Shown here in pieces: positions 1,483 to 60,677 of a DNA stretch of 64,000 nucleotides (the first letter of the stretch is position 1; each line of letters starts with the position of its first letter). The DNA is taken from the NCBI GenBank assembly GCA_016783745.1, contig JADHVZ010000003.1:7112-71111 (forward strand). The letters are read 5' to 3'. The translations under genes were made by a program, and so were the position numbers. The notes under the pieces are model-generated. The model did no database searches and had not been told where the DNA came from. It saw only the letters and a list, made by a program, of their open reading frames with translations. This DNA comes from Candidatus Omnitrophota bacterium (lineage in GTDB: Bacteria > Omnitrophota > Gorgyraeia > JAHIPI01).

Positions 1483-1576
1483 GGGTCACAAGACACAGGA
1501 CACAAGGTCACAAGACCAAGGATTTTTCTTTTCTGGTGACCTGGTGACGTGTGACCTTGTGACCCACGATTTTTTA
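1483..1576 (+). terminator. Long imperfect hairpin (GGTCACA-type 7-mers, then GTGACC-type 7-mers) followed by a T-run; terminator-like
   Basis: Left arm gggtcacaagacacaggacacaaggtcacaagaccaagg and right arm ggtgacctggtgacgtgtgaccttgtgaccc are near reverse complements around a 13-nt loop. A T6 run follows at 1571-1576. Confidence 0.4.
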
Positions 1577-4817: not shown

Positions 4818-6149
4818 ATGGACATAAAAGACATAGTCGGGAAAAGGTTTCCTCGATTTGGAGTAAATAAGCGGCAGGAGATAGCGCGACTTCTTTATGA
4901 AATATCTAAAAAAGAAGATGTTTCCTTCGAATGTATTATTGACGGTGTTTTGCGCGGACCAACAAAATTTGCCGATATTAAAGATTACCTTACCCGGCGG
5001 CGGTTCCCGCGTCGCACAGCTTCACCCGGGCGTTTTACCGCTTATTTGCCGGATCTTGATCTTGACCCGTCAAAAAAGGCAAGTATAAAAAAAAGAAAGA
5101 TAAATCCTAAAAACATTTACGCGGATAAAAAATCAGAAAAAAGCCCGCTTAGCATACGGCTCAAAAAAGCCTTCCCTCGTGCTGATTTTAAAACAATAAC
5201 CTCACTGAAGGGATATATTAAAGATAAGCGTTTTGATATAAAAGATCACAACCGCAGACGGGACAATTTCTTTGTAGTGCGCGAGGGATATGATTTTTTT
5301 AAGCACTGCCCCTGCACCTCCAAAGCTTTATCATGCGGCTATAATATATTCAACCTCGGGTTTGGTTGTGTTTTTGAGTGCGCATATTGCTACCTGCAGG
5401 AATACACGAATTCTCCGGGTATAATATTGCCTTCAAACATAGAAGATTTCTTTAAAGCCTTCAAGGGCACTGGGCGGAGCTTGAGAATAGGAACCGGAGA
5501 ATTTACAGATTCCCTGGCGCTGGATAGCATAACAGGATTTTCGACTATGATCATCGATTTTTTCAGAAGGCATCCTGACGCGGTATTTGAGTTTAAGACA
5601 AAGAGTGATAATATAAAAAACATTATCTCCGCGAAACCGGCCGATAATATCGTCATATCCTGGTCGCTCAATCCGCAATCCGTAATAGAAACCGAAGAGC
5701 ATCATACGGTATCTTTAGAGCGCCGTCTCGATGCCGCCATTAAATGCGTCAAGGCAGGGTTTACGGTCGGCTTCCATTTTGACCCGATCTTAGATTACGA
5801 GGGATGGGAGATCGATTACAAACGCGTGGTGGATCAGATTTTTAGCGCCCTGGATAGAAAGACGGTGAGATGGATCAGCCTGGGGACATTGCGTTTTGCG
5901 CCCGCGCTGAAGAAGACGATCGAAATGAGGTTTCCGCAAACTCGTATACTTGACGGCGAGCTCGCGCCGGATTTTGACAGAAAAATGCGTTACAGCGAAT
6001 CCATACGCATAGAGATATACAGGAAGATGCTGACGTGGATACGCGAAAGATCTGAGCGTGTCCCTGTCTATCTATGTATGGAAAATAAGAATGTCTGGAA
6101 AAGCGTTTCCGCTACTTCCCGTAAAGGACTTTCAACTGCTCTACTGTAG
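4818..6149 (+). CDS. Radical SAM DNA repair enzyme, spore photoproduct lyase (SplB) family, with an ~100 aa N-terminal extension
   Basis: Cx3Cx2C cluster GCVFECAYCY and SPL-family C-terminal region (WISLGTLRF...). Confidence 0.7.
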   Translation: MDIKDIVGKRFPRFGVNKRQEIARLLYEISKKEDVSFECIIDGVLRGPTKFADIKDYLTRRRFPRRTASPGRFTAYLPDLDLDPSKKASIKKRKINPKNIYADKKSEKSPLSIRLKKAFPRADFKTITSLKGYIKDKRFDIKDHNRRRDNFFVVREGYDFFKHCPCTSKALSCGYNIFNLGFGCVFECAYCYLQEYTNSPGIILPSNIEDFFKAFKGTGRSLRIGTGEFTDSLALDSITGFSTMIIDFFRRHPDAVFEFKTKSDNIKNIISAKPADNIVISWSLNPQSVIETEEHHTVSLERRLDAAIKCVKAGFTVGFHFDPILDYEGWEIDYKRVVDQIFSALDRKTVRWISLGTLRFAPALKKTIEMRFPQTRILDGELAPDFDRKMRYSESIRIEIYRKMLTWIRERSERVPVYLCMENKNVWKSVSATSRKGLSTALL

Positions 6150-8526: not shown

Positions 8527-8976
8527 ATGAAAGACCTGGAAGCGATTTTGAAGGAGCATCCTTTTTTCAAAGGCCTGGATCAGAAGCATCTTGAGTTTAT
8601 CGCCGGTTGCGGTAATAATGTAGCGTTTAAAGATGGTGATATCATATTGAAAGAAGGGCAAGACGCGGATAAATTTTATATCATACGTCAGGGCAAGGTA
8701 GCAATATTCATAGCCCACCCGAGTTCTATCACGATCCAGACGATTAAAGAAGGTGATATTCTTGGGTGGTCATGGCTTATTCCGCCGCATAAGTATCGTT
8801 TTAGCGCGCGAGCCCTTGAAGATACGCGTGCCGTCGCGTTGGACGGGAAATGTCTCAAGGCTAAATGCGAAGAAAATCACGAGTTGGGGTATAATCTGCT
8901 AAAAAGTCTGGTTGATGTTTTAGCGGGCCGTCTCGAAGCTACAAGGATACAGCTTTTAGACATTTATAATAAGTAA
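8527..8976 (+). CDS. Cyclic nucleotide-binding domain protein (cNMP-binding, no output domain)
   Basis: FKDGDIILKEGQDADKFYIIRQGKV...GWSWLIPPHKYRFSARALEDTRAVAL fits the CAP/cNMP beta-barrel. Only 149 aa and no HTH. Confidence 0.7.
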   Translation: MKDLEAILKEHPFFKGLDQKHLEFIAGCGNNVAFKDGDIILKEGQDADKFYIIRQGKVAIFIAHPSSITIQTIKEGDILGWSWLIPPHKYRFSARALEDTRAVALDGKCLKAKCEENHELGYNLLKSLVDVLAGRLEATRIQLLDIYNK

Positions 8977-9027
8977 AGGAGTTTAAAGATGGCTAGGAGG
9001 TTAACCTTCATGGTGTGCCGGTGAGGC

Positions 9028-9444
9028 ATGATCAGAGGCAAGCATCCGTGGGGATTTAAAAAGACATTGAAACCGACGGATAAGAGGCTGAGGAACATCA
9101 GGGGTTTTACGTTTATGAATTCGAGCTTTTCAAGCAAGACAGCCAGGCTAAAAAAGCATATATTGGACAGAGGCTGCAAGGCTGTTCTGGTCGAAGAAGA
9201 ATATGCGGGAGTGCCGGCCTATTACCTTCACATTGACCATGATGACTCCGATGACCCGATCACGGACGAGGACGTCTGGTTCGAAAAGGAAACTTATCTG
9301 GGGAAAATTAGCCGTAGAGCCTACCGGCCCGATTTTATAGAGATCGTGGACGTTGATTACAAAAGGCCTGCGGAGACCGAGACAAGAAAAGCGGATCTTA
9401 TTATGTCGCGGCAGTTAGGTACTGTCAGGCATCAGGGGAAATAA
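9028..9444 (+). CDS. Hypothetical acidic protein
   Basis: ORF sits between the cNMP-binding gene and the beta-CASP nuclease gene with short gaps. No motifs recognised. Confidence 0.35.
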   Translation: MIRGKHPWGFKKTLKPTDKRLRNIRGFTFMNSSFSSKTARLKKHILDRGCKAVLVEEEYAGVPAYYLHIDHDDSDDPITDEDVWFEKETYLGKISRRAYRPDFIEIVDVDYKRPAETETRKADLIMSRQLGTVRHQGK

Positions 9445-10885: not shown

Positions 10886-12181
10886 GTGAAAAAGAGACCG
10901 ACCTTAGTCATCGCGGATAAAAAGGGAAAAATATACGATATCCCGCCTTTAGAGGCTTGCGGTATGAAAGGCGGGAATTTTTTCCGGCTTAGGAGCCGCG
11001 AACTCATCAAGTTGCCTTACGGCAGTGAGATCTTTATGTTGCCCGGCCGCGCTCCGGTCGGCTACAGCGCCGGGAGCGGAAAGTTTGTGACTCCGAGCGA
11101 CAATTACGCGGTTGCCGCGTTTGTGCCGCCCGGCCGCACCATAACTTACAACAGCGCATACCGTGAGGCCGGCTCGCCAAAAACTCTGCCGCTTTTTGCC
11201 TATGGCGCGGTTGCCTTTTATAAAGGGGATTTTTATGCCGCCGCCGTGCAGGTAGACCGCGAACTTAGGCAGGACCTGCGGCTCATGGATGCCGCTTTAG
11301 TCAGCAAAAATGTCAAACGCTACAGAAAATTATATCCTTCGAACAGGCTTATCAGGCATCTTGAAGGTTGCGCGCTGAAATATGGCTGCCCTGCCGCCAA
11401 AAATTTCTTTTTAGAAAGATATGAGGGCCCGCTGCCTACATCCCCTCACTGCAATGCGTATTGCATAGGCTGCATTTCTCATCAGCCGGCCGGAGGATGC
11501 AGTATCACGCAGCCAAGAATAAAGTTTGTTCCGTCCGCCGAAGAGATAGCGGAGACCGCGCTGCATCATATCGGAAAGGTGAAAGACCCTGTTGTGAGCT
11601 TCGGGCAGGGCTGTGAAGGAGAGCCGCTTTTGGTTGGCAAGATTATAGAAAAAGCCGTCACACTGATAAGGAAAAGCACAGGTAAAGGCATTATAAATAT
11701 AAATACAAACGCAAGCCGGCCTGATACAATTAAACGTTTATTTAAAGCCGGGATGGACAGCATGCGGGTAAGCCTTAATAGCGCGCAAGAGCCGCACTAT
11801 ATCAGATACTACAAGCCCAGAGGCTACAGATATAAAGATGTGATCAGATCTATCAGGGAGGCAAAGAAAGCGCGGGGCTTTGTATCGATCAATTATCTTA
11901 CAATGCCCGGATTTACTGACACAAAAGAGGAATTTGATTCCCTGAGAAAACTGATAAGAAACTGCAAAATAGATATGATCCAGTGGCGTAACTTAAATTT
12001 TGATCCGGCGCGATATTTCAAGGAGCTTAGAATACCTTTCTCTGATTCCAAGTTTCTTGGAATGAGACGGGTTATAAGTGCGATAAAAAAAGAATTTCCT
12101 CATGTCCTGACCGGCTATTTTAATCCTTCCCGGCAACGAATCCGAAGAAAAAGGGGACAGACACTTTTTGAGGCGTTGTAA
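10886..12181 (+). CDS. Radical SAM domain protein with an ~190 aa N-terminal domain of unknown function
   Basis: Cx3Cx2C (CNAYCIGCIS) and a glycine-rich SAM motif (GQGCEGEPLL). Confidence 0.6.
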   Translation: MKKRPTLVIADKKGKIYDIPPLEACGMKGGNFFRLRSRELIKLPYGSEIFMLPGRAPVGYSAGSGKFVTPSDNYAVAAFVPPGRTITYNSAYREAGSPKTLPLFAYGAVAFYKGDFYAAAVQVDRELRQDLRLMDAALVSKNVKRYRKLYPSNRLIRHLEGCALKYGCPAAKNFFLERYEGPLPTSPHCNAYCIGCISHQPAGGCSITQPRIKFVPSAEEIAETALHHIGKVKDPVVSFGQGCEGEPLLVGKIIEKAVTLIRKSTGKGIININTNASRPDTIKRLFKAGMDSMRVSLNSAQEPHYIRYYKPRGYRYKDVIRSIREAKKARGFVSINYLTMPGFTDTKEEFDSLRKLIRNCKIDMIQWRNLNFDPARYFKELRIPFSDSKFLGMRRVISAIKKEFPHVLTGYFNPSRQRIRRKRGQTLFEAL

Positions 12182-12242
12182 AGGGGACAGACACTTTTTT
12201 TGCGGCTACGTAGATAGCTTCAAAAAAAGTGTCTGTCCCCTT
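12180..12242 (+). terminator. Rho-independent terminator: an 18-bp perfect stem (aaaggggacagacacttttt) plus a T-run; the 5' arm is duplicated inside the upstream CDS
   Basis: Perfect inverted repeat at 12183-12200 and 12224-12241 with flanking T/A runs. A second copy of the arm lies at 12148-12169. Confidence 0.6.
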
Positions 12243-12563
12243 CAATCCTGGAAGGCGCCACCGGCGCATTGGCCCAAGGGGCAGGGATTATTCCTTGCCC
12301 CTTTTATATTTCCATTGTATAATAGCCTATAATAATAACCTATAAAGACTTTGATGTATAAAGGAAAAAGATTATTTTTGTTCCGAATTATGTTATGAGG
12401 CTTTTTTTAATGGCGGAGGCCTGGATATTGTTCCGGACATAGATGAGGCGGACATAACAGCCCCGGGGGATATAGCGAAGAGTCAGGTCATAGAGAAGGT
12501 GACAGCTGGGCCTCAGATTGAGAAATTTGTTGAAACAGTTAAATCCGGCGAAGCAAAGTAGGA

Positions 12564-15500
12564 ATGGTAAAATCAGCAGCTAAGGCTAAAACGGAGCCTA
12601 AAAAGTCAATACCTCTACAATTTCCTTCAGTGGATGTGGTGGAGGCCTCCGCGGGATCAGGAAAGACCTACGCGCTCGCGAAGCGCTATGTGCAGCTTAT
12701 CACCTACCCTCACAAAGGGCCCGAAGACACCCCTCTCAAAACAATACTCGCCGTCACATTTACCAATAAGGCCACGATCGAGATGAAGCAGAGAATACTT
12801 GAATTTTTGAAGAAAGTGGCCCTCGGTATTTTCTCGGATGAACGTGAAAGGAAGGACATATCTTCTTCCATTGCCGTTGACTTTGAGTCTGCGCAAGTGA
12901 TAGCCTGCAAAGTGATGGAAGATATCATCGGCCACTATAATTATTTCCAGGTGCAGACTATAGACAGTTTTATTAATACGCTTCTTTCGGGTTGCTCGTT
13001 TCACCTGGGGTTTGCGTCGAATTTCAGAATAAAGGAGGAATACCGTACATATCTGGAATATAGCCTGGACAGCCTTATAGATAAAGTCGAGGCAGATAGC
13101 GACGTCCTCCGCACATTTGAAAATTTTCTAAGATATTACCTTTTCATAGAGAATAAGGAAGGATGGTTTTTTAAACAGGATATTTTGGGGATCATAGAAA
13201 GCCTGTATAATTATGTAAATACCTATGGCGGGGCCTTTGTCAGCCCCGAGATAGACGCGAACGACCTGCTTAAGAAAAAAAGAGAAATAATAAAGCTTAT
13301 ATGTAAAATACATTCCGCCTCACCCGAGGGCACCCACGGACGCTTTATGAAAAGCCTGGATTCTTTTATCGAGAATAACGAAGGCACCTTCAATATCGAT
13401 AGGCTCTCTAAATACTTTGGCTATGAAGAGTTTCCGGTTAAGAAGGGGGTAAGAAGGCCCGCAAATATTGCAAGGATGTGGGATAAGCTGCGCAGGGATC
13501 TGGACCAGCTCTGTAAATGGGAGTCATTCGCGCTTTTCAAGCCATATATCGATATATTTGAGCTCACCCTCCGGGAATTCGGTAAGATCGCCGGAGGGGA
13601 GGACATAGTATTTTTGCAGGAGTTAAATACGCACGCGCGGGGGCTTGTGGGGGAGAAGGGCGTTACAGTCCCGGAGCTTTATTACAGGCTCGCCACGCGT
13701 TTTCACCATTATCTTATCGATGAGTTCCAGGATACAAACCGCCTTCAATGGAGTAATATATTCCCGATGGTCGAAGAGGCCCTTTCATCCGGCGGCTCGT
13801 TTTTTTACGTTGGGGATAAAAAGCAGGCGATATTCAGATTTAGGGGCGGGGACGTATCATTATTTGATTCCGTGCAGAAGGATTTCAAAAATTATAATCC
13901 GTCGCAAAGAATGCTGGCCAAGAATTTCCGCAGCCATAAAGAGATAGTTCGATTTAACAATGAGATCTTTAGCGCCGGTAACCTGAGGCGGTTTCTAAGG
14001 GCTCATGATGAGTCTCAGAAGGAGCCCCTGGGATTTTCTGAGGGCGATATTTTAACCGTACTCAATATTTTCAGCGGCTCAGAGCAGGAATGGAAAAAAG
14101 AGAATAATAGCGGCTATGTAAGCGTGGAATCCTTTAACGCGCCTAACGCGGATGAGAGAGATGTTTTTATGCGGTCGAGGCTTGTTTCGCTTATCAAAGA
14201 GCTCGGGGAGCGTTTTCCTTACGGTGAGATCGCTGTCCTGGTAAGAGAAAATAAAGACGTTAAACGGTTTTCATCCTGGTTTCTTGAGGAAAATATACCC
14301 GTTGAATCTGAGAAGACCCTCAATATTCGCGAGCAGCCTTTGATCAAAGAGCTTATATCGTTTCTTAAGTTCTTAAACTCGCCCATAGATAATCTTGCTT
14401 TCGCCTCATTCGTATCCGGTAAAATATTCCAGAAGGCATCGGGCGTGACCGCGGAAGAAGTACGCGACTTTCTCTTCAAATTCCGGGGCCGTAGAAAAAG
14501 GGAAAAGGGCGTATATCTGTATACTGAATTCAGGCGGTCTTTCCCGGAGGCCTGGCAGGGTCTTATAGGGGGGATTTTCAAAAATGTAGGATATGTGCCT
14601 CTCTATGAACTCCTGACAACGATCCTGGGAAAGCTGAAGGCGCTGGATAACTTTCCTGAGTATCAGGGATTTTTTATGCGGTTACTTGAACTGATCAAGG
14701 AAAAGGAGGAGGATTATCCCGGCATATCCAAATTTCTGGAACATTTTGACCAGATGGTGGAAAAAGACCTTTTTGTGAATGCCGCGCACGCGAATTCCTT
14801 GACTGTCATGACCATACACAAATCAAAAGGCCTTGAATTCCCCGTAGTCATCATACCGTACCTTGAGATGGAGGTATCCGTGGGCTCCGGAGGAGCCGGA
14901 CAGAAAAGGCCATATGTGGTCAGGCAGGCGGACGATAACGCCTTAAAGCTTGTGCAGCTGAAAAAGAGTTACGGGACATATTCACCGGAACTCGCGAGAG
15001 ATTACAAAGAAGAATACATAAGGTCATTAATAGATCAGCTGAACAGTTTATATGTTGCCCTGACAAGGGCTAAATATGAGATGTATCTTTTTATGCCGTC
15101 CAGGACCTCAGGCAGGAATAATATAGCCCTTGATCTTATCCCCGGTGAAAGTGATGAAAGAGGCAGGAAAATACCGTATGGCCGTACGGAAAAGAATAAG
15201 AAGCAGTTTATGCATCTGCCATGTTCAAAATATTCGGACTGGATAGGGGTCCTGAAGGATGAATTTATCACCCCATCTCAACTTATCAACAGGGATAAGA
15301 TGCTTAGGGGCGAGATCCTGCATTATATGCTTTCATTTATCGGAAATCTGAGCGTGGACGAGAGGAGTCTATCCCTGCGCGCCGCGCGCGAGAAGGCGCG
15401 CCTGAGATATCCTTATGTGAAAGAACTTGATGCGTATATGTCTATTGTCCGGGATCTTGTAAAAGAAGAGAGATTTAAACCCTTCTTTTACGTAAAAGAA

Positions 15501-15746: not shown

Positions 15747-18582
15747 TGTAGTGACTTGCGGTCTTAATGAGAGTTTTCTAAAGTTTCTTTCAGGTTACAT
15801 TGACAGTAACTATCTGAAGAAGGGATCTGACCTGACGCGCGTAGCATTTGTCTTTGAAGGGAAAAGGCCTTCACTTTTTTTAAAGAGGATGCTTGCCGGA
15901 AAAAACAAGACAGGTTTTTTCCCGCCGCGCTTTTTTTCAATAGATGAGTTTGTCGAATACACACTATCAAAAAAAACCCCGTTTTCAAAGATGCCGGCCA
16001 TGGAATCATGTTATACGATATTTACTTTGGCAGGGGAAATAGCGCCCGAGATAGTGAAGGGGAGGGAGGAATTTTCTAAATTTCTGCCGTGGGCTCGTGA
16101 AATAGTGAGTTTTATAGATACACTTGATATCGAGGACATACCCTCACACGCCCTGAAGGATGTCCAGGCCAGCGCATCTATAGGATACGAGATCCCGGAT
16201 AATATAAACGCGTCTCTCGCGCACATAATCAAGCTGCGTGAGAGGTATCATGAAGTAATGGCCGGAACGAATTCATTCTCAAAGGGTTATATATATCTTT
16301 CAGCCTCACGCGCGGCTAAAGAGGTTGATCTCGAGGAGTTTGACGCAATATACTTCTGCGGTTTTTTCTATATGCAAAAGACACAGAGAAGCATAGCCAA
16401 ACATCTTTTTGAATCGGGAAAAGCGAATTTCTTTTTTCAGGGCCATGAGAAGGAATGGCCTGTTCTTAAGGAGACCGCACGGGATCTTTCATGCTCTATC
16501 AAGCCCTCAGGTAATAGCGCGGCGAGTTCAACCGGCCGCACGGGCTCATCGCTCAAGCTTTATTCGGCATTTGACAGACATTCTGAAGTTTGTACTGTAA
16601 GGGAGATCTTAAAAGGAGTAAAGAAGCTTAACTCGACCGTGATAGTGCTGCCGGATCCCAACAGCATGATACCCCTTGTATCCGAAATAGGCTCATTATC
16701 GAAAGATTTCAACGTTTCACTCGGATATCCGCTGAGAAGGAGCTCCCTGTACGCGCTCTTTGATTTTATAGTACAGGCGCAGAAGACAAGGAAGGGCGGT
16801 AAATATTACGCAAAGGATTATATCGCCTGCATGAGCCAGCCGCTTGTTAAAAATCTCAGGATCCTCGACAGTTACAGCGCAACGAGAATACTTGTGCATA
16901 AAGTGGAGGAAGCGCTTTTAGGCATAGAAGAGACGCCTCTTAATAACCGTCTCTTTGTAGGCCTTAAGGAGATAGAGAATGAACCGGCATTGCTTGAAGC
17001 AGCTTCAAGCACGCTGAAACATATGGATATAGACCTTAAGCCGTCAGAATTAAAGAAAGTATTAGAAGGGCTTCATTCGGCCTTATTTGTCCCATGGGAA
17101 GACCTTTCTGATTTTCAGGGTTTTGCGGGATCACTGGGTAGCCTGCTGGACGTGCTTGTTTATAAAAGCCTGATGAGAGAATACGGCCTTAATCTTAAGA
17201 TCGCGGAGAAGATGTACACGGTAAGGGACGAGCTGGAGAGTTCCCCGTTCGCGAAGGAGAAGTTCACTAAAGAAGATATGTTTAAGATATTCCAGAATAT
17301 GGTGGAAAATGAGGTGGCGCCATTCAGCGGATCTCCGCTCAAAGGACTGCAGGTATTGGGGCCCTTTGAGACGCGTTCTCTTAATTTCGAGAATGTCATT
17401 ATAATGGATGCCAATGAATCCGCGCTCCCCAGACTTCGCTTGAAAGAGCCGCTGATACCGCATGATGTCTCGCTTGGGCTTGGATTAAAGATCATTGAAA
17501 ATGAAGAGGAGATACAACGCTATCAATTTAAAAGGCTGATCGCCGGGGCGAAGAACGTGCATCTGGTTTACCAGGAAAATCCGGTAAAGCAGAAGAGCAG
17601 ATTTGTGGAGGAGATCATCTGGCAGCTGCAAAAGGAGAAGAAGTCGCTGGATGCCGTTTCCGCCCAACAGGTAAGTTTTTCAGTGAATGTATTATCTTCC
17701 GGCATAGAGATAAAAAAGACTCCTGAGATGCTGGATATGCTGAAAAATTTCAGGTATTCGGCTTCCAGCGTGGATACATATGTGAAGTGTCCGCTGCAAT
17801 TTTACTATAAACATGTGCTTGGGCTCGAGGAAAAGAAGGAATTCCCCGAAGACCCGGAAGGCAGGGAGATAGGGACTTTTCTTCATGGCCTTCTTCAGGA
17901 GACGTTCCGGGTATTTCTGAATAAGAAGCCTGTGATAGACGGAAGATTCCGCGAAGCGTTCTTTAAAAAATTCCGCGAGAGATTCAAAAACACTTTCGGC
18001 AGGAGAATGCGTTCAGACTCATTTTTGCTTGAGGATGTGATGAAGTTCAGGCTCGAGCGTTTTCTCGATGCCGAATCGGGCAGCGAAGAGAGAAGGGTGA
18101 AGGAAATACTCTCACTGGAGAATCCGCTGCAGAAGGTGATCGGACTTTCAGGGGATAAATTTGATTTTAAATATATAGTGGACAGGATAGACAGGCTTGA
18201 TGACGGTTCCATACTTATACTGGATTACAAATCAGGCGCTGATACGCTTAAGCCGCAGCGGACAGAAACACTTGAGAAAATGGAGTTTAGCAGAGAGTCT
18301 ATACGGGACAGAATAAGGTCTTTCCAACTGCCTATTTACTATCACCTGGAAAAAAGAACATATCAGGATGATACTTTAAACGCGGCTCTCTACAGCCTGC
18401 GGAATCTGAAGCTGACTTATTTAGACGATGATAATACGGATCTGGAGAGGACCATGGAGATATGCATGAAAGCGCTCGACTATATAATCCATGAATTGCT
18501 GGATCCAAAGGTGCCTTTCGCGGCGGATCGCGAGAAGGAAAGAAGCTGTACATATTGTCCATTCTTCTACTTATGCAGATAG
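15739..18582 (+). CDS. addB: AddB/RexB-like nuclease subunit (PD-(D/E)XK nuclease with C-terminal Fe-S cysteines)
   Basis: C-terminal ILDYKSG nuclease motif and terminal cysteines (CTYCPFFYLC). Overlaps the upstream gene by 8 bp, as in addAB operons. Confidence 0.6.
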   Translation: MGNVVTCGLNESFLKFLSGYIDSNYLKKGSDLTRVAFVFEGKRPSLFLKRMLAGKNKTGFFPPRFFSIDEFVEYTLSKKTPFSKMPAMESCYTIFTLAGEIAPEIVKGREEFSKFLPWAREIVSFIDTLDIEDIPSHALKDVQASASIGYEIPDNINASLAHIIKLRERYHEVMAGTNSFSKGYIYLSASRAAKEVDLEEFDAIYFCGFFYMQKTQRSIAKHLFESGKANFFFQGHEKEWPVLKETARDLSCSIKPSGNSAASSTGRTGSSLKLYSAFDRHSEVCTVREILKGVKKLNSTVIVLPDPNSMIPLVSEIGSLSKDFNVSLGYPLRRSSLYALFDFIVQAQKTRKGGKYYAKDYIACMSQPLVKNLRILDSYSATRILVHKVEEALLGIEETPLNNRLFVGLKEIENEPALLEAASSTLKHMDIDLKPSELKKVLEGLHSALFVPWEDLSDFQGFAGSLGSLLDVLVYKSLMREYGLNLKIAEKMYTVRDELESSPFAKEKFTKEDMFKIFQNMVENEVAPFSGSPLKGLQVLGPFETRSLNFENVIIMDANESALPRLRLKEPLIPHDVSLGLGLKIIENEEEIQRYQFKRLIAGAKNVHLVYQENPVKQKSRFVEEIIWQLQKEKKSLDAVSAQQVSFSVNVLSSGIEIKKTPEMLDMLKNFRYSASSVDTYVKCPLQFYYKHVLGLEEKKEFPEDPEGREIGTFLHGLLQETFRVFLNKKPVIDGRFREAFFKKFRERFKNTFGRRMRSDSFLLEDVMKFRLERFLDAESGSEERRVKEILSLENPLQKVIGLSGDKFDFKYIVDRIDRLDDGSILILDYKSGADTLKPQRTETLEKMEFSRESIRDRIRSFQLPIYYHLEKRTYQDDTLNAALYSLRNLKLTYLDDDNTDLERTMEICMKALDYIIHELLDPKVPFAADREKERSCTYCPFFYLCR

Positions 18583-18818
18583 GACTTGACATGAAAAAGA
18601 GATTACTGAAGGAGCTCAAAAAAATCAGGAAGGAACTGCGCATCCTCCGGCATCCGGCGTGGCTCTCGGGGTAGTGATGACAGGTTTTTCTATAAGCGTC
18701 GGCGTCGCCGTTGTAACCAGCGCGGTAATGTTGTCTTTAGTCCACCATTATTTTAAAGAGTATTTAATGGATCTGACTTGATCTAATATCTTAAAGAGGC
18801 CTGCCAAAAGGATAGGCC

Positions 18819-28922: not shown

Positions 28923-28999
28923 GCGCCTGTAGCTCAGATGGATAGAGCGACTGGCTTCGAACCAGTAGGCCGCAGGTTCGACCCCTGCCAGGCGCGCCA
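28923..28999 (+). tRNA. tRNA-Arg (anticodon TCG)
   Basis: Cloverleaf: acceptor GCGCCTG/CAGGCGC, anticodon loop CTTCGAA, T-loop TTCGACC, CCA encoded. Confidence 0.8.
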
Positions 29000-29093
29000 C
29001 TATATCGTTCGGGCTTCGGGGCAAAAAGTTGGACATTTCACATATGTTACATGTGTTCTCGAATCGTTTGTTATTTCTCGAGAGGCGCTTATA

Positions 29094-29197
29094 ATTCGTT
29101 TATCGTATATCGTTGATCGTTTATCGTTTTTGTTGATGAGCATCACAGGATTTGTACGATTGACGATAAACGATAGACGATTAACGATATGCGAACA
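29094..29197. repeat. Heptad-periodic long imperfect hairpin: five TATCGTT-type units, a 20-nt spacer, then five to six ACGATNN (reverse-complement) units
   Basis: Lies in the tRNA-Arg to tRNA-Leu spacer. The units have a 7-nt period on both arms. A further GCGGGC/GCCCGC hairpin sits at 29270-29290. Confidence 0.4.
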
Positions 29198-29333
29198 ACC
29201 AAGGAGCTGTAACGTTACGTTTCATTTTTTTGATTTTTTACGGAATTGCTTTATAGCGAGGAAGCGGGCAGGCCAGGAAAGCGGGCCAGCCCGCCGAAGT
29301 TTGTTTCGTAAGAATAGCAGGAGTAAAACGAAG

Positions 29334-29418
29334 GCGGGCGTGGCGGAACTGGCAGACGCGCATGGCTTAGGACCATGTGGAGAAATCCTTGGGGGTTCAA
29401 GTCCCTCCGCCCGCACCA
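29334..29418 (+). tRNA. tRNA-Leu (anticodon TAG), class II with long variable arm
   Basis: Acceptor GCGGGCG/CGCCCGC, anticodon loop CTTAGGA, long variable arm, T-loop TTCAAGT, CCA encoded. Confidence 0.85.
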
Positions 29419-29490
29419 GCTTATGCTATTTTTCTTGAAATATTACGCTTGTATGATAAAATAAACATCTATCTTTGATAAGTTAAAAGT

Positions 29491-29566
29491 GCCCGCATAG
29501 CTCAATTGGTAGAGCAAGACACTCTTAATGTCGAGGTTCTAGGTTCGATTCCTAGTGCGGGTACCA
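29491..29566 (+). tRNA. tRNA-Lys (anticodon CTT)
   Basis: Acceptor GCCCGCA/TGCGGGT (G1-U72 wobble), D-arm GCTCAATTGGTAGAGC, anticodon loop CTCTTAA, T-loop TTCGATT, CCA encoded. Confidence 0.75.
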
Positions 29567-29575
29567 GATATTAGT

Positions 29576-29670
29576 AGGTTTTAGGTGATAGGTAGTAGGT
29601 TATAGGTTTTTAGGAAAGAAATTTAAACCTACAACCTATAACCTACTACCTAACATATGATTTTTTAAAG
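29576..29670 (+). terminator. Hairpin built of TAGGTNN heptads (20-bp perfect stem) followed by a T6 run; terminator after tRNA-Lys
   Basis: taggtagtaggttataggtt (29589-29608) pairs perfectly with aacctataacctactaccta (29634-29653). The T-run is at 29661-29666. Confidence 0.5.
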
Positions 29671-29677
29671 CTATAAT

Positions 29678-29753
29678 GCGGGAGTAGCTCAGTTGGTAGA
29701 GCATCACGTTGCCAACGTGAATGTCGCCGGTTCGAGCCCGGTCTCCCGCTCCA
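29678..29753 (+). tRNA. tRNA-Gly (anticodon GCC)
   Basis: Acceptor GCGGGAG/CTCCCGC, anticodon loop TTGCCAA, T-loop TTCGAGC, CCA encoded. Confidence 0.85.
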
Positions 29754-30380: not shown

Positions 30381-30455
30381 TTAGTGCTGAGTCGGGAGTT
30401 GGGAGTCAAGAAACTTCCACACTCAAGACTCAGAACTCAGGACTCATAACTAAAT

Positions 30456-50289: not shown

Positions 50290-50293
50290 AAGC

Positions 50294-50417
50294 CATAAGG
50301 GGACCATAAGGGGACCATAAGGGGACGTGTCACTTGTGGGACATACCTTTAGGTGTGTCCTCAAGTGACATGTCCCCTTACTATCCTAATGACCTGTCCC
50401 CTTCTCACACGTCCCCT
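50294..50417. repeat. Left direct-repeat element: 3x11-mer (cataaggggac), a 57-bp palindrome (50321-50377), and a GTCCCC micro-repeat tail
   Basis: The 62-bp block 50320-50381 is identical to 51469-51531. The tail at 50387-50417 matches 51570-51600. Confidence 0.6.
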
Positions 50418-50457
50418 AATGAATATGTTAGATATACAAAAGATAGTTTTTGCACTA

Positions 50458-50535: not shown

Positions 50536-50640
50536 GTTTTTCGTCGAAAAAGGCAAACCATCTGAAAGGGTGGGGCTGCAAAGCCAAGTGCCTAACGCGC
50601 GAATCGCGCTAAGGTCGACTGGCCGCCGAAATGAAAAATT
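50536..50640 (+). ncRNA. Candidate class I c-di-GMP riboswitch (GEMM motif)
   Basis: aggcaaaccatctgaaagggtggggctgcaaagcc...gcctaa closely parallels the Vc2 aptamer core (GGCAAACCAUUCGAAAGAGUGGGACGCAAAGCC...GCCUAA). This includes the GAAA tetraloop hairpin (CCAUCU-GAAA-GGGUGG) and the CAAAGCC receptor region. Confidence 0.55.
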
Positions 50641-50655
50641 TTTTCATTTTTACAG

Positions 50656-50702
50656 CCCCGGATCTCAGATGGCAAAATGCCGTCGCAGATCCGGGGTTTT
50701 TT
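50656..50702 (+). terminator. Intrinsic terminator / expression platform: a 10-bp stem (ccccggatct / agatccgggg) plus T6
   Basis: Perfect GC-rich stem followed by tttttt. The RBS (gaaggag) and ATG of the PilZ gene lie ~15 nt downstream. Confidence 0.6.
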
Positions 50703-50720: not shown

Positions 50721-51338
50721 ATGAACGGCAAAAAGAACAACGGTCGGAATAAAAAGATCAAGAAATGCAGAGTTATTGCCCTGCTAAAGAGGGATGAGGT
50801 GGAATTTCTTGATAAGCTGGCCATGGATTCTCTCTTTTCGACTGGCACAAAACTTTCAAGGGTTGAAATAATCAGCGCCCTTGTCAGTGTAGCGATGCTC
50901 TTAGAATTGTCAGCTAGCAATGTTAAGAGTAAAGAAGAGTTAGTTGATAGAGTGATGGATCTACTCAATCCTAATCCTGAGCGAAGACAGATTCCCCGCC
51001 TTAAGAAAAACCTGATGGTAAAATTCAGGAAAATAGAATCCCTACAGGGATATGAAAACGGCGCTACTATAGATGTAGGCATCGGAGGTTTTAAAGTGGA
51101 TGTCGCTTTTATGGGAAAGCCGCTAGCTGTTGATCAACCGATAGAGATCACGGTCAATGAACCACAAGACGAAAGCAAAACAGTAAAGGCGATAGGCCGT
51201 GTAGCCTGGATAAGGGAAAAGGGCGATGGCCATAGCCACGAAATAGGCATCATGCTTACATACATAAAAGCAAATGACAAAGACACCTTCCTTAAATATT
51301 TGACAGGCGATAGGGAAGCCAAAAGCGATGCACAGTAA
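50721..51338 (+). CDS. PilZ-domain protein (c-di-GMP receptor) with an N-terminal RHH-like/unknown domain
   Basis: RRQIPRLKKN (RxxxR) followed by DVGIGGFKV (D-x-S/G-x-x-G) and a beta-barrel-like C-terminus. Confidence 0.6.
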   Translation: MNGKKNNGRNKKIKKCRVIALLKRDEVEFLDKLAMDSLFSTGTKLSRVEIISALVSVAMLLELSASNVKSKEELVDRVMDLLNPNPERRQIPRLKKNLMVKFRKIESLQGYENGATIDVGIGGFKVDVAFMGKPLAVDQPIEITVNEPQDESKTVKAIGRVAWIREKGDGHSHEIGIMLTYIKANDKDTFLKYLTGDREAKSDAQ

Positions 51339-51459: not shown

Positions 51460-51468
51460 AAGTCACGC

Positions 51469-51600
51469 AGGGGACGTGTCACTTGTGGGACATACCTTTA
51501 GGTGTGTCCTCAAGTGACATGTCCCCTTACTACACCCCCTTTAAGGAGTGTCCCCTTTTGACACGTCCCCTAATGACACGTCCCCTTCTCACACGTCCCC
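51469..51600. repeat. Right direct-repeat element: the same 57-bp palindrome plus four GTCCCCT micro-repeats (contains a 38-bp insertion relative to the left copy)
   Basis: Identical 62-bp block to 50320-50381. gacacgtcccct-type units recur four times at ~13-bp spacing. Confidence 0.6.
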
Positions 51601-51676
51601 TCAGATCTAATATATTGACATAAATATTGACATAATATATAATATAAACTTAATTCGATAAACGGAGGGCAATAAT

Positions 51677-55876: not shown

Positions 55877-55898
55877 GTTTAAGGAATTTCTCCACACC

Positions 55899-55922
55899 CT
55901 GACACCTTGACACTTTGACACT
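55899..55922 (+). repeat. Three tandem 8-bp units (cTGACACc TTGACACT TTGACACT) upstream of the HAMP paralog gene
   Basis: Direct reading. The units are -35-hexamer-like (TTGACA) and lie ~20 nt upstream of the RBS. Confidence 0.4.
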
Positions 55923-55943
55923 TTATAACAAGGAGGTGGCTTT

Positions 55944-56540
55944 ATGAAGCCTAAGGTACATTCCCGCAGGCAGTATTTAATAAACAGGCAGTTGCAGCTA
56001 TCATACGCCTGGCTTCTTATTTTGTGCGTAGGATTGGTGATCATCATCTTTGGTTTGTCTCTGTGGTATGTGAATAAGATGCATCTGAGCCTTTTTTACA
56101 GCATTGTAGGCGAAGAAGCCCTCCCTAAGCACTATATAAACACCGTGCAAAATCAGTTTTTGGTGGGAACGATTATAGCCGTAGCCGTGGTATCCGGCCT
56201 GCTTCTTATCCTCGGAATATATGCCTCGCACAGGATAGCGGGGCCCGCTTACCGGATCACGAAAAATCTCAATCGTGTAGGCGTGGAGAACGAAATGGAT
56301 ACTATCCAGGTCCGCAAAAAGGACCAGCTTAAGGAGATGGCTGATGCCTTTAACCACATGGTGCATGCTTTAAAGGATAAGATGTATCAAGATATGCGGC
56401 TCATAGATCAGGTAAAGACAAGGATCGTGCAGCTTCACGAGAGCCTGCGCGGTGAAAGCCTGGACATAAAGAAGCTCTCCGAGCAAGTCAAAGAGATAGA
56501 AAAAATAGCAACAGAACTGCGTAATAGAAAATATATTTAA
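55944..56540 (+). CDS. HAMP-domain membrane protein without an output domain (paralog of 49083..49685)
   Basis: Shares the SH(K/R)IAGP(L/A)Y(K/R) motif and architecture with the 49083 gene. Confidence 0.5.
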   Translation: MKPKVHSRRQYLINRQLQLSYAWLLILCVGLVIIIFGLSLWYVNKMHLSLFYSIVGEEALPKHYINTVQNQFLVGTIIAVAVVSGLLLILGIYASHRIAGPAYRITKNLNRVGVENEMDTIQVRKKDQLKEMADAFNHMVHALKDKMYQDMRLIDQVKTRIVQLHESLRGESLDIKKLSEQVKEIEKIATELRNRKYI

Positions 56541-56555
56541 ACGGGGGAGAAACAC

Positions 56556-57047
56556 ATGGTATGCGATATTTGTGGCAATATGGATGCCACGGTACATCTT
56601 ACGGAGATCGTAAACGATCAGATGACAAAACTCCATCTCTGCGAGGAATGCGCAAAGAAAAAAGGCGCTGAGATGGAAGAGCATTTCGGACTGGCGGATC
56701 TTCTTGCGGGGCTGGCGGATGTCGGTACGCCTTTACAAGTGTCCGATGAAAAAAAGCTCAAATGTGATTCATGCGGCCTTACTTATTCCGATTTTAAAAA
56801 GATAGGCAGGCTTGGGTGCGGCCAGTGCTATGATAAATTTCGCTCGTATCTGGTGCCTCTGTTCAAGCGCATACACGGCTCCGATGTCCATCTCGGAAAG
56901 GTGCCTCATCAGAAGACAAAAACGCCTAAACAGAATAAAGTGAATACCGAAGACCTTAAAAGGCGGCTTAAGAGGGCTGTGGAGCTGGAAGAGTTTGAAG
57001 AGGCGGTGAAATTGAGGGACGAGATCAAAAAGTATGAGCGGAAGTAA
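56556..57047 (+). CDS. mcsA: McsA-like protein (double CxxC zinc fingers plus a C-terminal UVR motif)
   Basis: CDICG...CEEC and CDSCG...CGQC zinc fingers. A UVR-like EEFEEAVKLRDEIKKYE motif. Confidence 0.7.
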   Translation: MVCDICGNMDATVHLTEIVNDQMTKLHLCEECAKKKGAEMEEHFGLADLLAGLADVGTPLQVSDEKKLKCDSCGLTYSDFKKIGRLGCGQCYDKFRSYLVPLFKRIHGSDVHLGKVPHQKTKTPKQNKVNTEDLKRRLKRAVELEEFEEAVKLRDEIKKYERK

Positions 57048-57066: not shown

Positions 57067-58116
57067 ATGAAGATAAACGACCTTATAACACAAACGGGCG
57101 AATGGCTTAAGGGTGACGGCCCTAACGCGGATATCGTCATATCAAGCAGGGTGCGCCTGGCGCGTAATATAAAAGGATTTCCATTTTATCACTGGGCGGG
57201 TAAAAAGGAAAAAGAAGAGATATTATCTATTGTAAAAAACGCCATCTCTAAATCCAAATATATGAAAGGCTCACTTTTCGTAAAGATAGCGGCTATAGAT
57301 GAAATAGACAGGCAATTTCTTGTGGAACGGCACCTTATGAGCCGTGAGCACGCCGTAAATGATGAATTTAAAGCCCTTTCGGTCGATGATCGGGAGGTCA
57401 TGTCAGTGATGATCAATGAGGAAGACCATATAAGGGCTCAAGCCATTCAATCCAGTTTTAACCTTATGGATACATGGCGGGTACTGTCAGAACTTGATAA
57501 TGAACTTGAGGACAAGATGGATTTCGCGTACTCGGATAGATGGGGTTATCTTACCGCGTGCCCGACGAATATCGGTACGGGCCTGAGGGCATCGGTGATG
57601 CTGCATCTTCCGGCGCTTGTGATAACCAACCATATCAGCAGAGTGCTTCAGGCTATATCAAAGCTCGGCGTCATGGCGAGAGGGCTTTTCGGCGAAGGCA
57701 CTGAGGCAAGCGGAAATTTTTTCCAGATCTCAAACCAGGTCACTCTGGGGCATACGGAAGAGGATATCATAGATAATATGGAGAAGCTGGTCAACCAGGT
57801 GGTAGGAAGAGAGAAAAGCGCCAGGGAGTATCTTTTGACGCAGAACAAGCCAGCGCTTTTTGACAAGATATGGAGGGCGTTTGGGACTTTAAAGAGCGCC
57901 AGGATCATAACAAGTGATGAGACTATAAGGCTTCTTTCTCTTATCAGGCTCGGCGTAGATCTGGAAGTCATAAAAGATATCGACAGAAGGACCATGAACG
58001 AACTTTTTATATATATGCAGCCGGCGCATCTTCAAAAACTTGAAGGCAAAAAACTTTCTTCCATGGAAAGGGACATGAGAAGAGCGGATTTAATAAGGTC
58101 GAAGTTGAAGGTGTAG
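57067..58116 (+). CDS. mcsB: Protein arginine kinase (ATP:guanido phosphotransferase)
   Basis: CPTNIGTGLRASVMLHLPAL phosphagen-kinase active-site signature. Confidence 0.85.
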   Translation: MKINDLITQTGEWLKGDGPNADIVISSRVRLARNIKGFPFYHWAGKKEKEEILSIVKNAISKSKYMKGSLFVKIAAIDEIDRQFLVERHLMSREHAVNDEFKALSVDDREVMSVMINEEDHIRAQAIQSSFNLMDTWRVLSELDNELEDKMDFAYSDRWGYLTACPTNIGTGLRASVMLHLPALVITNHISRVLQAISKLGVMARGLFGEGTEASGNFFQISNQVTLGHTEEDIIDNMEKLVNQVVGREKSAREYLLTQNKPALFDKIWRAFGTLKSARIITSDETIRLLSLIRLGVDLEVIKDIDRRTMNELFIYMQPAHLQKLEGKKLSSMERDMRRADLIRSKLKV

Positions 58117-58118
58117 TA

Positions 58119-58230
58119 AAACGGTTTACGGTGAACGGTTCACGGTTTACGGTTAACAGAACAACCGTAGGATTTTTAAAACCGTTAACCGTACACCGAA
58201 AACCGATAACCGAAATATATATTCAGGAGG
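58119..58230. repeat. Heptad-periodic hairpin: five tandem ACGGTNN units, a short spacer, then six AACCGNN (reverse-complement) units, immediately upstream of clpC
   Basis: acggttt acggtga acggttc acggttt acggtta ... aaccgta(gg) ... aaccgtt aaccgta caccgaa aaccgat aaccgaa. Confidence 0.45.
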
Positions 58231-58238
58231 CATAATCA

Positions 58239-60677
58239 ATGGCGATGTTCAATAGATTTACAGAAAGGGCGAGAAAGGTTATTTTACTGGCTAAAGAGGA
58301 AGCCAAAAGATTTAACCATGACTATATCGGCACAGAACACGTACTACTGGGCCTGGTCAGAGAAGGTGAAGGGGTGGCGGCTGCCGTACTTGAAAGCCTG
58401 GGGCTAAGTTCTGATAATGTACGCATGGAGATCGAAAAGCTTGTGAAGGCCGGACCCAGTACTCTTATTTCCGGCGATTTACCGTTTACGCCAAAGGCTA
58501 AAAAAGTCATGGAGCTTTCTATGGATGAGGCAGTTTCTCTGGGCCATAATTATATCGGTACGGAACACCTGCTCTTAGGGCTTTTGCGTGAAGGAGAAGG
58601 TGTTGCCGCGCAGGTTTTGATAGCCTTAGGATTGGATATGAGTAAGGCCAGGACTGAGGTCATGAGGCTTCTGGGCTCCACTACTCCAGGCTTTGGAGCA
58701 CAGCAAAAATCTCAGGCAGCCCGGGGCCAGAAAAAGGCGCCGGCCCTTCAGGCTTTCGCCCGTGACCTGACTGAACTAGCGAAGCAGAATAAGCTGGATC
58801 CCGTAATAGGGCGCAGTAATGAGATAGAGAGAGTCATTCAGATATTGAGCAGGCGTACCAAGAATAATCCTGTTTTACTTGGCGAGGCCGGAGTCGGCAA
58901 GACCGCCATAGTTGAAGGACTTGCGCAGAAGATAATCAATGGTGACATACCGGAGACACTTAAGGGCAAACGGATCCTCATATTGGATCTTGCGCTTATG
59001 GTAGCCGGCACCAAGTATAGGGGGCAATTTGAAGAGAGAATAAAGGCCGTTATGGAGGAGATAAAGCGCTCCGACGAACTTATTATTTTCATAGATGAAC
59101 TTCATACACTTGTCGGCGCGGGCGCGGCAGAAGGCGCTATAGACGCGTCGAACATCTTAAAACCTTCGCTTTCCAGGGGGGAGATACAATGTATCGGCGC
59201 GACAACACTTGATGAGTATCGAAAACATATAGAGAAGGACGCCGCGTTAGAGAGAAGATTTCAGACTATCATGGTGGATCCGCCGACAGTGGAGGAGACA
59301 ATAGAGATACTCAAGGGTTTAAGGGATAAATATGAAGCGCACCATAGGGTGAAATTCACAGATGAGGCGGTTGAAGCCGCGGCCAGGTTATCGGATAGAT
59401 ATATCAGCGGAAGGTTTCTTCCGGATAAAGCAATAGACGTGATAGACGAAGCCGGTTCGCGCGCAAGGCTTGCCACTATGACCGTCCCTCCGGATGTGAA
59501 AAAACTGGAAGAGGAAATAGACAATTTTAAAAAAGAAAAAGACGCGGCTGTAGAGGCGCAGAATTTTGAAAAAGCGGCCGAATACAGAGACATGGAGAGA
59601 AAGTCAAGGGACACGCTTGTTGTTACCAAGAAAGAGTGGAGCCAGAAGAAGGGCACAGATGAACCCGAAGTAGGCGTCGAGGACATCGAAGTCATAGTGT
59701 CGAAATGGACAGGCATACCTCTTTCGAGATTGGAGGAAAAAGAAGGGGAAAAATTCCTTAAGATGGAAAATGGCCTTAAAAAGAAGGTAGTGGGCCAGAA
59801 TGAGGCGATCTCAGCTATCGCGCGCGCTGTCAGACGCTCGAGAGCGGGCATCAAAGACCCTAACAGACCCATAGGCTCATTCGTATTCCTGGGGCCGACA
59901 GGAGTCGGTAAGACACTTCTCGGCAGGGCCCTTGCGGAATACATGTTTGGTGATGAGAACGCCATAATCCAGATAGACATGTCAGAGTACATGGAGAAGT
60001 TTAACATCTCAAGGCTGGTCGGCGCGCCTCCGGGGTATGTGGGATACGAAGAAGGAGGCCAGCTTACTGAAAGGGTAAGGAGAAAACCTTATTCTGTCGT
60101 GCTTCTGGATGAGATTGAAAAAGCGCATCCCGACGTGTTCAATATTTTACTGCAGGTCATGGAGGAAGGGCGCATGACAGACTCTTTCGGCAGGCGCGTT
60201 GATTTCAAGAATACGATCATCATCATGACCTCGAATATCGGCGCGGAGATGCTGAGAAAACAGGGGGCTATAGGTTTCAAGACGCAAAATCAGGAACAAG
60301 AAAATTACAAGACTATGAAGTCAAGGCTGATGGATGAGGTAAAGAAGACATTTAAGCCGGAATTCCTTAACAGGGTCGACGATATAATAGTCTTCCACCA
60401 GTTGACAAGGGAAGACCTCAGCGAAATAGTAGACATAGAGATAATGGATGTAAAGGAGCGCCTTGAAAATCAGAATATTAAGATAACACTCGATAAAGAC
60501 GCGAGGGAATTTTTGGTGGAAAAAGGCTTTGACCCTGTTTTTGGAGCGAGGCCGCTTAAGAGGACCATTCAGAGGTACATCGAAGACCCTCTGGCGGAAG
60601 AGATAATCTCCGGAAAATTTAAATCCGGTTCCATGGTCAAGGTCACAAAGAAGGGGAATGAACTTGCTTTTAAATAA
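58239..60677 (+). CDS. clpC: ATP-dependent Clp protease ATP-binding subunit ClpC (double Clp_N, two AAA+ modules, UVR)
   Basis: Two Clp_N repeats, Walker A GEAGVGKT and GPTGVGKT, 812 aa. Confidence 0.9.

Follow-up and report, generated by a model that had tools for sequence, protein, structure and literature searches.

CtsR binds a tandem heptad repeat, and heptads are also the unit of short tandemly repeated repetitive (STRR) sequences, whose named families STRR1-3 belong to Calothrix and Anabaena. Cyanobacterial STRRs between hupS and hupL are "usually made up of 7 bp repeats" and form hairpins, for which effects on transcript stability, translational coupling or termination have been proposed (PMC2670836). 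Heptameric simple sequence repeats (SSRs) are over-represented in bacterial intergenic DNA, and polymerase slippage has been proposed as their source (Mrazek et al. 2007, to the extent cited in PMC4692102). Described examples are the GGGAATC or (GGGANTN)n repeats of Xanthomonas, which sometimes occur as inverted pairs, and the GGGGAYT repeats of Nostoc (PMC4692102). In marine Beggiatoaceae, TAACTGA repeats are present at about 170 loci, almost all of them direct and one indirect (MacGregor 2015, PMC4679880).

The window, that is, the whole 64-kb stretch of Candidatus Omnitrophota DNA that was analysed, contains an mcsA-mcsB-clpC operon in which the 122-nt spacer between mcsB and clpC (58117-58238) is filled by tandem heptads and their inverted copies. 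The gene order is the one claimed in the original prediction, with Pfam identifying McsA-like, McsB and ClpC proteins; upstream of mcsB lie genes for an aminotransferase and a 198-aa membrane protein, followed by the mcsA-like gene. The 198-aa product had been called a HAMP-only membrane protein. It has apparent N-terminal membrane segments, and its HAMP match is sub-threshold only (E = 0.0038, under the gathering score). The features of the operon and its spacer are:

55944..56540, + strand: gene for the 198-aa protein, 5' of mcsA, with apparent N-terminal hydrophobic (membrane) segments and a sub-threshold HAMP match; not CtsR
56556..57047, + strand: mcsA-like gene (UVR motif; Pfam)
57067..58116, + strand: mcsB, protein arginine kinase (ATP-gua_Ptrans; Pfam), with its stop codon 4 nt ahead of the first heptad
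58121..58155, + strand: left arm, five heptads (ACGGTTT, ACGGTGA, ACGGTTC, ACGGTTT, ACGGTTA), core ACGGT invariant and last two positions variable
58146..58171, + strand: apical hairpin at the element tip, UUUACGGUU-aacagaac-AACCGUAGG, including the innermost inverted copy AACCGTA (58164-58170)
58172..58181, + strand: AUUUUUAAAA tract 3' of the apical hairpin, bulged out in the full-length fold
58181..58215, + strand: right arm, five inverted heptads (ACCGTTA, ACCGTAC, ACCGAAA, ACCGATA, ACCGAAA), core ACCG invariant and three positions variable
58226..58231, + strand: Shine-Dalgarno sequence AGGAGG of clpC, outside the hairpin
58239..60677, + strand: clpC (Clp_N, two AAA+ modules, UVR motif; Pfam)

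From its first nucleotide the spacer reads taaa, the five left-arm heptads in the order listed, acagaac, AACCGTA and ggatttttaa; the inverted heptads AACCGTT, AACCGTA, CACCGAA, AACCGAT and AACCGAA follow, and the spacer ends with atatatattcAGGAGGcataatcaATG. Measured from the mcsB stop codon (58116) to the clpC ATG (58239), the last stretch after AACCGAA is atatatattcAGGAGGcataatca. Exact ACGGT cores occur five times at period 7 (58121-58155), and inverted ACCG(T/A) copies occur six times (58164-58215). Tandem Repeats Finder reported two period-7 arrays in the spacer, 58120-58157 and 58178-58215, at 5.4 copies per arm, and the arms form inverted repeats of 27-33 nt with a complementarity of 76-89%. 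Allowing at most one mismatch, ACGGTnnACGGT matches the 64-kb window 12 times against 1.24 expected, a count that none of 100 shuffles reached, and every exact match falls within the mcsB-clpC element. The RNA fold of the element has an energy of -42.1 kcal/mol (z = -4.5), which was equalled by none of 200 shuffles. The same 140 nt spanning the element are identical across five independent assemblies, with no copy-number polymorphism of the heptads among them; in a sixth assembly a scaffolding N-gap interrupts the repeat. The element is real and non-random and is no assembly artefact, and the five tandem heptads and six inverted copies originally predicted upstream of clpC were confirmed by sequence, by Tandem Repeats Finder and by shuffling.

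The operon had also been said to lack ctsR. A CtsR probe, validated with Pfam (two CtsR domains, at 9e-37 (PF05848) and 1e-25), was searched against the 64-kb window and 86 Omnitrophota loci, each with up to 10 kb upstream of mcsB. Across this set there was no phmmer match at E<=10 and no significant tblastn match (best E = 0.38), confirming the absence of ctsR from the operon neighbourhood throughout the Omnitrophota sample. Pfam identified no other clp or hsp gene in the 64-kb window and no transposase domain, Y1 included, among the 56 window proteins scanned. At gathering thresholds, Rfam matched only four tRNAs and one c-di-GMP-I riboswitch in the window, and no known RNA family at the element.

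Tandem Repeats Finder identified paired period-7 arrays at four further sites in the window (E1-E4):

1487..1564, + strand: E1, CACAAGA-type heptads, a loop and inverted (C)TGGTGAC units (GTGAC-type arm), core CACAAG; a small ORF (1182-1451) lies on one side and a promoter-like site (1605-1633) on the other
29096..29190, + strand: E2, five TCGTnnA units, a loop and five ACGAnnn units, flanked by tRNA-Arg and tRNA-Leu
29575..29653, + strand: E3, five TAGGTnn units, a loop and four AACCTAn units, flanked by tRNA-Lys and tRNA-Gly
30389..30448, + strand: E4, three GAGTnnn units, a loop and four ACTCAnn units, filling the gap from the PTS EIIA-2 gene to a CofD/YvcK-like gene

All five window elements share one build, in which 3-5 heptads are followed by a short loop and inverted heptads. 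Their 4-5-nt cores (ACGGT, CACAAG, TCGT, TAGGT and GAGT) differ throughout and have no sequence in common, and a second copy of any of the five was not found in the 64-kb window. When the window was scanned for periodic self-similarity at periods 4-12, six segments were detected at period 7 and a single one at each of periods 8 and 11; the remaining periods gave nothing.

Variation within the arrays is limited to two or three adjacent columns of the heptad. The 28 arms examined have 112 invariant columns in total, a number not attained in any of 5000 permutations (expectation 99.3 +/- 3.1). In the mcsB-clpC element ACGGT and ACCG are invariant and the linkers look random. This split between core and linker argues for a constraint on pairing cores; the cores would be conserved because they must pair whatever the register, leaving the linkers free. 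In the stems of 26 elements, Watson-Crick pairs make up 78% of positions, and mismatches of other types outnumber transition types about 2:1, as expected for unconstrained positions. The same 26 elements showed no excess of G.U over A.C mismatches on the sense strand (29 vs 18, p = 0.14). The sense and antisense strands fold with similar energies except at E2, where the + strand folds better by 15 kcal/mol (-44.9 vs -29.7). These strand tests give no general support for selection at the RNA level, and pairing may matter in RNA or in DNA.

Elements of this class are common between genes in Candidatus Omnitrophota, and the mcsB-clpC element is one of them. In a data set of 1.24 Mb from 81 sources (80 loci and the window), an exact 5-mer recurred at least three times at period 7 at 42 loci, compared with about one in shuffled sequence. 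The corresponding counts at periods 6, 8, 9, 10, 11 and 12 were 4, 9, 11, 7, 1 and 8 loci, with none at period 13 and 13 at period 14, the double of 7. Autocorrelation of the same 1.24 Mb gave 130 period-7 arrays against 24 after shuffling, and 14 inverted pairs against none. Non-coding DNA, about 6% of the sequence by crude ORF calls, holds 68 of the 130 arrays. Among long hairpins with internally periodic arms, period 7 was the commonest (12 of 21), followed by period 10 (five) and period 8 (three). Hairpin-type elements typically begin 0-11 nt past a stop codon and finish 5-27 nt ahead of the next start codon, between co-directional genes. Sister elements with the same build and other cores are found, both here and in related genomes, between tRNA genes and in gaps that run from a stop codon to the next RBS. 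Multi-copy homologous families were also present: within 19 kb, one locus (L049) has two AAGCTTA arrays alongside its four TAGCGnn elements, and another (L035) carries three related copies. In the literature, no description of such heptad elements in Omnitrophota was found.

Matches to the window element itself extend to metagenomes. In the spoVG-to-tRNA spacer of metagenome contig L157, 26 nt are identical to the window left arm and are accompanied by a matching inverted arm. At least 120 metagenome contigs, with GC contents of 0.34-0.78, contain arrays of four ACGGTnn units; most of these arrays are simple repeats, and about one in seven is paired with an inverted array across a central hairpin. 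This count cannot be read as a period-7 effect, because a control on viral contigs showed no heptad preference, with four ACGGT copies at periods 7, 8 and 10 in 55, 30 and 58 contigs. Given this control, the period bias belongs to the Omnitrophota data and not to the ACGGT motif everywhere.

The mcsB-clpC junction was then compared among McsB relatives (56-76% identity) from 80 genomes, all of them Candidatus Omnitrophota MAGs or SAGs, some mislabelled Planctomycetia. Gene calls in these loci were crude longest-ORF calls, which hide some elements in spurious ORFs and blur distances. The spacer could be delimited in 76 relatives, and its length is bimodal: 54 of the 76 spacers are at most 40 nt (median 20, essentially the RBS alone) and 22 are longer than 60 nt, while lengths of 41-60 nt do not occur. 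An apparent spacer of 277 nt at one locus (L081) was discarded as the product of an N-gap. The closest relative (L001) has a 19-nt spacer without a repeat. The window element is an addition of about 95 nt, specific to its lineage, to an otherwise minimal junction of about 20 nt. In seven lineages the long spacers contain tandem-armed hairpins built of unrelated units: TAGTCSA/CTATGGA (L039), AGCGGTT/AACCGCT (L041), TAGCGnA/CGCTAnn (L049), GTAAAAA/TTTTGAC (L035), and those of L079, L062 and L023 (period about 10); another locus, L038, has partial heptads only. Because most relatives have short spacers and the units are unrelated where present, the unit sequences indicate that such junction elements were gained independently in several lineages. 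The absence of the element from the closest and from most relatives also means that clpC expression does not need it. Elements were found at 3 of 77 mcsB-clpC junctions and in 12 of 987 other spacers (odds ratio 3.3, p = 0.09), a comparison in which the window itself was ascertained, and long spacers account for 29% at mcsB-clpC and 24% among the remaining co-directional spacers. In neither respect does the junction stand out.

Among the described systems, STRRs come close in build. They share with the element the 7-bp tandem units, the intergenic and often intercistronic position (hupS-hupL in Nostoc, Anabaena and Lyngbya), the hairpin and the many loci per genome; however, they belong to Cyanobacteria and not to Omnitrophota, and their unit sequences are unrelated. 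STRRs are near-perfect repeats, whereas the window elements have nearly one core per locus, each an invariant 4-5 nt joined to a variable linker. The window units ACGGTnn, TCGTnnn, TAGGTnn, GAGTnnn and CACAAGn match no named STRR family on comparison with STRR1-3. To judge by these units, the resemblance is one of architecture and not of homology. The features that define STRR-type repeats were found at the element, namely at least three tandem 7-nt units, an intergenic position, many arrays with an excess at period 7, and direct and inverted arrays that can pair. In architecture the element is thus of the heptamer-repeat kind, and it shares sequence with no named family.

Heptameric SSRs resemble it in their period-7 excess among longer SSRs, their intergenic position, their heterogeneous units with conserved positions and their occasional stem-loop pairs. 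In Xanthomonas and Nostoc, however, there is one G-rich family per genome, studied as a G-quadruplex former, and the window element is not G4-prone; moreover, the direct-plus-inverted layout that is the rule in the Omnitrophota elements is the exception there. TAACTGA repeats are likewise heptamers; their two to six copies lie within a few nucleotides 5' of the start codon, at housekeeping genes among others, and a post-transcriptional role is suspected (PMC4679880). They consist of a single shared heptamer, whereas the Omnitrophota cores differ per locus and each array has an inverted partner. REP/BIME (REPIN) sequences are also imperfect palindromes between co-directional genes and plausibly act as 3'-exonuclease barriers or partial terminators, and L049 and L035 are REP-like in having several homologous copies per genome. 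In contrast to REPs, the window has no high-copy identical family and no Y1 transposase in its 64 kb, and REPs lack the heptad periodicity. The CtsR operator of Firmicutes (A/GGTCAAAnAnA/GGTCAAA) is a heptad tandem repeat tied to the same operon. It differs in sequence and in lying at a promoter rather than between cistrons; the element, for its part, has no ctsR beside it, is not conserved and has siblings of the same build at unrelated genes.

The original suggestion that the heptads form a CtsR-type operator, or that of another repressor, did not hold. In such a scheme a DNA-binding repressor replacing CtsR would bind the tandem and inverted ACGGT heptads and regulate clpC, for which the absence of ctsR from the window and from the operon neighbourhood in 86 of 86 Omnitrophota loci, the CtsR-type binding to tandem heptads and the nearly palindromic ACGGT/ACCGT core can be cited. 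We regard it as extremely improbable. The CtsR box RGTCAAAnAnRGTCAAA, at up to 3 mismatches, has 9 matches in the window where 6.0 are expected (16 of 100 shuffles reach 9), none of them in the spacer; with the CtsR box at chance and no CIRCE element (the HrcA heat-shock operator) found, a heat-shock operator was rejected. A consensus scan of the + strand from 57900 to 58238 predicted no sigma-70-like promoter, so a clpC promoter inside the spacer was likewise discarded, and the element has no promoter-like site to overlap. The ACGGT motif is confined to the mcsB-clpC element in a window that has no other clp or hsp gene for comparison. The four siblings carry four other cores and lie by tRNAs or housekeeping genes, and five dedicated regulators in 64 kb are implausible; a single repressor is excluded because five different cores are unreadable by one protein and tRNA spacers are not heat-shock promoters. 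Finally, the element is absent in the closest relative and at 54 of 76 junctions, and unrelated units occupy the same place elsewhere. The element is thus very probably no binding site for a sequence-specific regulator, and the operator reading is rejected.

A protein could instead read the repeats in RNA. TRAP (trp RNA-binding attenuation protein) and HutP sites consist of a short conserved core and non-conserved spacers at fixed spacing beside the RBS. An oligomeric RNA-binding protein of this sort (TRAP, HutP, CsrA or the regulator proposed for the Beggiatoaceae TAACTGA repeats) might control clpC translation from a position just 5' of the RBS, where the element likewise presents cores with free spacers at fixed spacing and where the partition into core and linker is significant. 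TAACTGA heptamers a few nucleotides upstream of start codons have been proposed to act in this way (PMC4679880). Nevertheless, each of the five window elements has a different core, so that no single protein would read them all, pairing with the complementary arm would bury the sites in a stem, and the RBS itself lies outside the structure; we judge an RNA-binding array very unlikely. An RNA thermometer or sequestration of the RBS was rejected, since AGGAGG lies outside the hairpin and is unpaired with it in the minimum-energy fold, and readings as an integron attC site, a restriction site or a telomerase-like repeat were dropped because the cores have no common motif.

We therefore identify the element, with high confidence, as a generic heptameric simple-sequence-repeat hairpin of STRR-like build and not as an operator. 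Under a slippage and template-switch model, which we consider the most likely for its origin, the element would have arisen locally by 7-nt replication slippage around a small hairpin, and intrastrand template switching and/or selection for core pairing would have maintained the complementarity of its arms.

What such a hairpin would do in the operon is a more tentative matter. With all genes of the operon pointing the same way and no promoter predicted between mcsB and clpC, the element is most probably carried on one transcript with mcsA-mcsB-clpC. The transcript would form an imperfect stem-loop of about 35 bp and about -40 kcal/mol once the right arm has been made, with a weak terminator-like hairpin followed by U5 at its tip. 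A terminator-like scan placed this apical hairpin at 58146-58171, with 9 pairs (3 G-C), a loop of 8 and then AUUUUUAAAA; hairpin and tail together reach -8.5 kcal/mol with a U tract of five U only, and the tip is weaker than canonical terminators of the same window, such as that at 50654-50698. A generic cis effect at the RNA level might follow: transcription might pause or partly terminate at the element, and/or the stem might block 3'-exonucleases and so stabilise the mcsA-mcsB message upstream of it, which would lower clpC relative to mcsB. This effect is drawn by analogy with intercistronic stem-loops, REP elements and the STRR proposals, and we put it forward as somewhat less probable than its absence. 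The element may act as an internal attenuator setting the clpC:mcsB ratio, the second of the original suggestions, but this would be a by-product of a generic class of elements and not a clpC-specific device. The identity of the element and its RNA-level effect, blended into one claim, come out as somewhat probable.

The element may also be neutral or selfish DNA with no role in expression, produced by heptamer slippage and quasi-palindrome template switching or by a tiny copy-and-paste element, and surviving only where it is harmless, between a stop codon and the next RBS. Its patchy presence among relatives, the unrelated units, the lack of enrichment at the mcsB-clpC junction and the lack of a G.U strand bias are consistent with this, as are the several homologous copies in some genomes (four TAGCGnn elements in 19 kb at L049, three copies at L035), the 26-nt identity in the different context of the L157 spoVG-to-tRNA spacer and the ACGGTnn arrays in at least 120 metagenome contigs of widely differing GC content. 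However, invariant cores beside randomised-looking linkers are hard to obtain from neutral decay alone. Omnitrophota genomes are compact, and where the median spacer between co-directional genes is about 8-20 nt, it is not obvious that an insert of 60-100 nt costs nothing. The five window elements share no sequence, and the scan of 56 window proteins detected no transposase domain. On balance we hold the neutral or selfish reading, including its confinement to harmless sites, to be unlikely, though it deserves serious weight. A bolder proposal, which we consider distinctly unlikely, is that the elements form a phylum-wide Omnitrophota class defined by architecture and not by sequence. Such elements would form anew at many junctions and persist because, as modular stem-loops in RNA or DNA, they adjust how strongly the genes of an operon or tRNA cluster are expressed relative to one another. 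If this were true, the mcsB-clpC element would be a genuine tuner of the ClpC:McsB ratio, of recent origin, and the class would make the role of heptamer STRR hairpins, a question 35 years old, tractable.

For clpC regulation, the identification of the element as a generic heptamer hairpin is mainly a negative result, in that there is no hidden CtsR-like operator. The sampled Omnitrophota mcsA-mcsB-clpC operons are without ctsR, so their stress control must work differently. For an uncultured phylum with small, compact genomes, there is a strong and specific excess of 7-nt hairpin repeats in stop-to-RBS gaps and between tRNA genes, in agreement with the STRR hairpins of cyanobacteria and with other heptamer repeats. 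This suggests that heptamer hairpins are a general phenomenon, in which the polymerase perhaps sets the slippage length, and that they are possibly under selection. What remains is a set of clean, quantifiable heptad hairpins with constrained cores, which could help to settle the role of such repeats.

Across 86 related Omnitrophota mcsA-mcsB-clpC loci (L001-L086), no CtsR homologue was detected adjoining the genes, the stretch inspected in each reaching as far as 10 kb 5' of mcsB. The Omnitrophota appear to run this operon, at least locally, without its Firmicutes repressor. The first gene of the string encodes a predicted membrane protein of 198 amino acids, and directly 5' of its ribosome-binding site lies an 8-nt direct repeat, (C/T)TTGACAC, present in three to four copies (window 55897-55924) and having no inverted partner. 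TTGACA hexamers are present in the repeat, but at the wrong spacing to a -10-like TATAAC for a promoter. In another assembly of the same organism (L081), a run of N (4123-4222) falls within the heptad element between mcsB and clpC and inflates the spacer to 277 nt, showing that the repeat breaks short-read scaffolding.

Heptad hairpins in the window also accompany tRNA genes and a start codon. The spacers of a tRNA cluster (Arg, Leu, Lys, Gly; window 28923-29753) hold two of them, E2 and E3. The start of E2 coincides with the end (29095) of a promoter-like TTGTTA-16-TATAAT, and this element alone folds far better on the + strand (-44.9 vs -29.7 kcal/mol), via G.U pairs. Another hairpin, E4, precedes a CofD/YvcK-like gene (ATG at window 30456). 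Because the sole Shine-Dalgarno-like site before this gene, AGGA (30441-30444), sits inside the last heptads of E4, the hairpin could occlude the ribosome-binding site.

Elsewhere in the window, the following features were found in succession:

50542-50630, + strand, c-di-GMP-I riboswitch (Rfam, 67.5 bits)
50654-50698, canonical terminator hairpin with U tract, after the riboswitch
50721-51338, PilZ-domain gene, after the terminator hairpin

This unit looks like a c-di-GMP-sensing leader ahead of a c-di-GMP receptor gene. Flanking it are two copies of a hairpin module of ~60 nt (GGGGACGTGTCACTTGTGGGACATACC...GTGACATGTCCCC; window 50293-50420 and 51465-51640), each adjoined by 11-15-nt tandem repeats (CCATAAGGGGA in three copies, GTCCCCTTnnGACAC in 3.5), while a related inverted repeat, AAGGGGACAGACAC, is located at 12151-12248. 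Together these modules are a second repeat family, distinct from the heptads.

Heptad arrays were also found in other genomic settings. On a metagenome contig (L157, 2681-2770; GC 0.40), the array ACGGTTT ACGGTGA ACGGTTC... shares 26 identical nt with the window element and has an inverted arm, AAACCGA TAACCGA; its context differs, with a SpoVG-like gene on one side and a tRNA on the other. A 19-kb span of one Omnitrophota genome, CG1_02_40_15 (L049), contains four hairpins built of TAGCGnn heptads and homologous to one another, plus two arrays of AAGCTTA:

5284-5337, repeat element
8975-9041, repeat element
14700-14779, repeat element
15825-15901, repeat element
17541-17584, repeat element
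18641-18696, repeat element

All six are housed in stop-to-start gaps; several elements of this genome also adjoin start codons lacking a clear Shine-Dalgarno sequence. Heptad number and loops vary between copies. The copies in this genome suggest that heptad elements have spread, or been homogenised, as families in some genomes.
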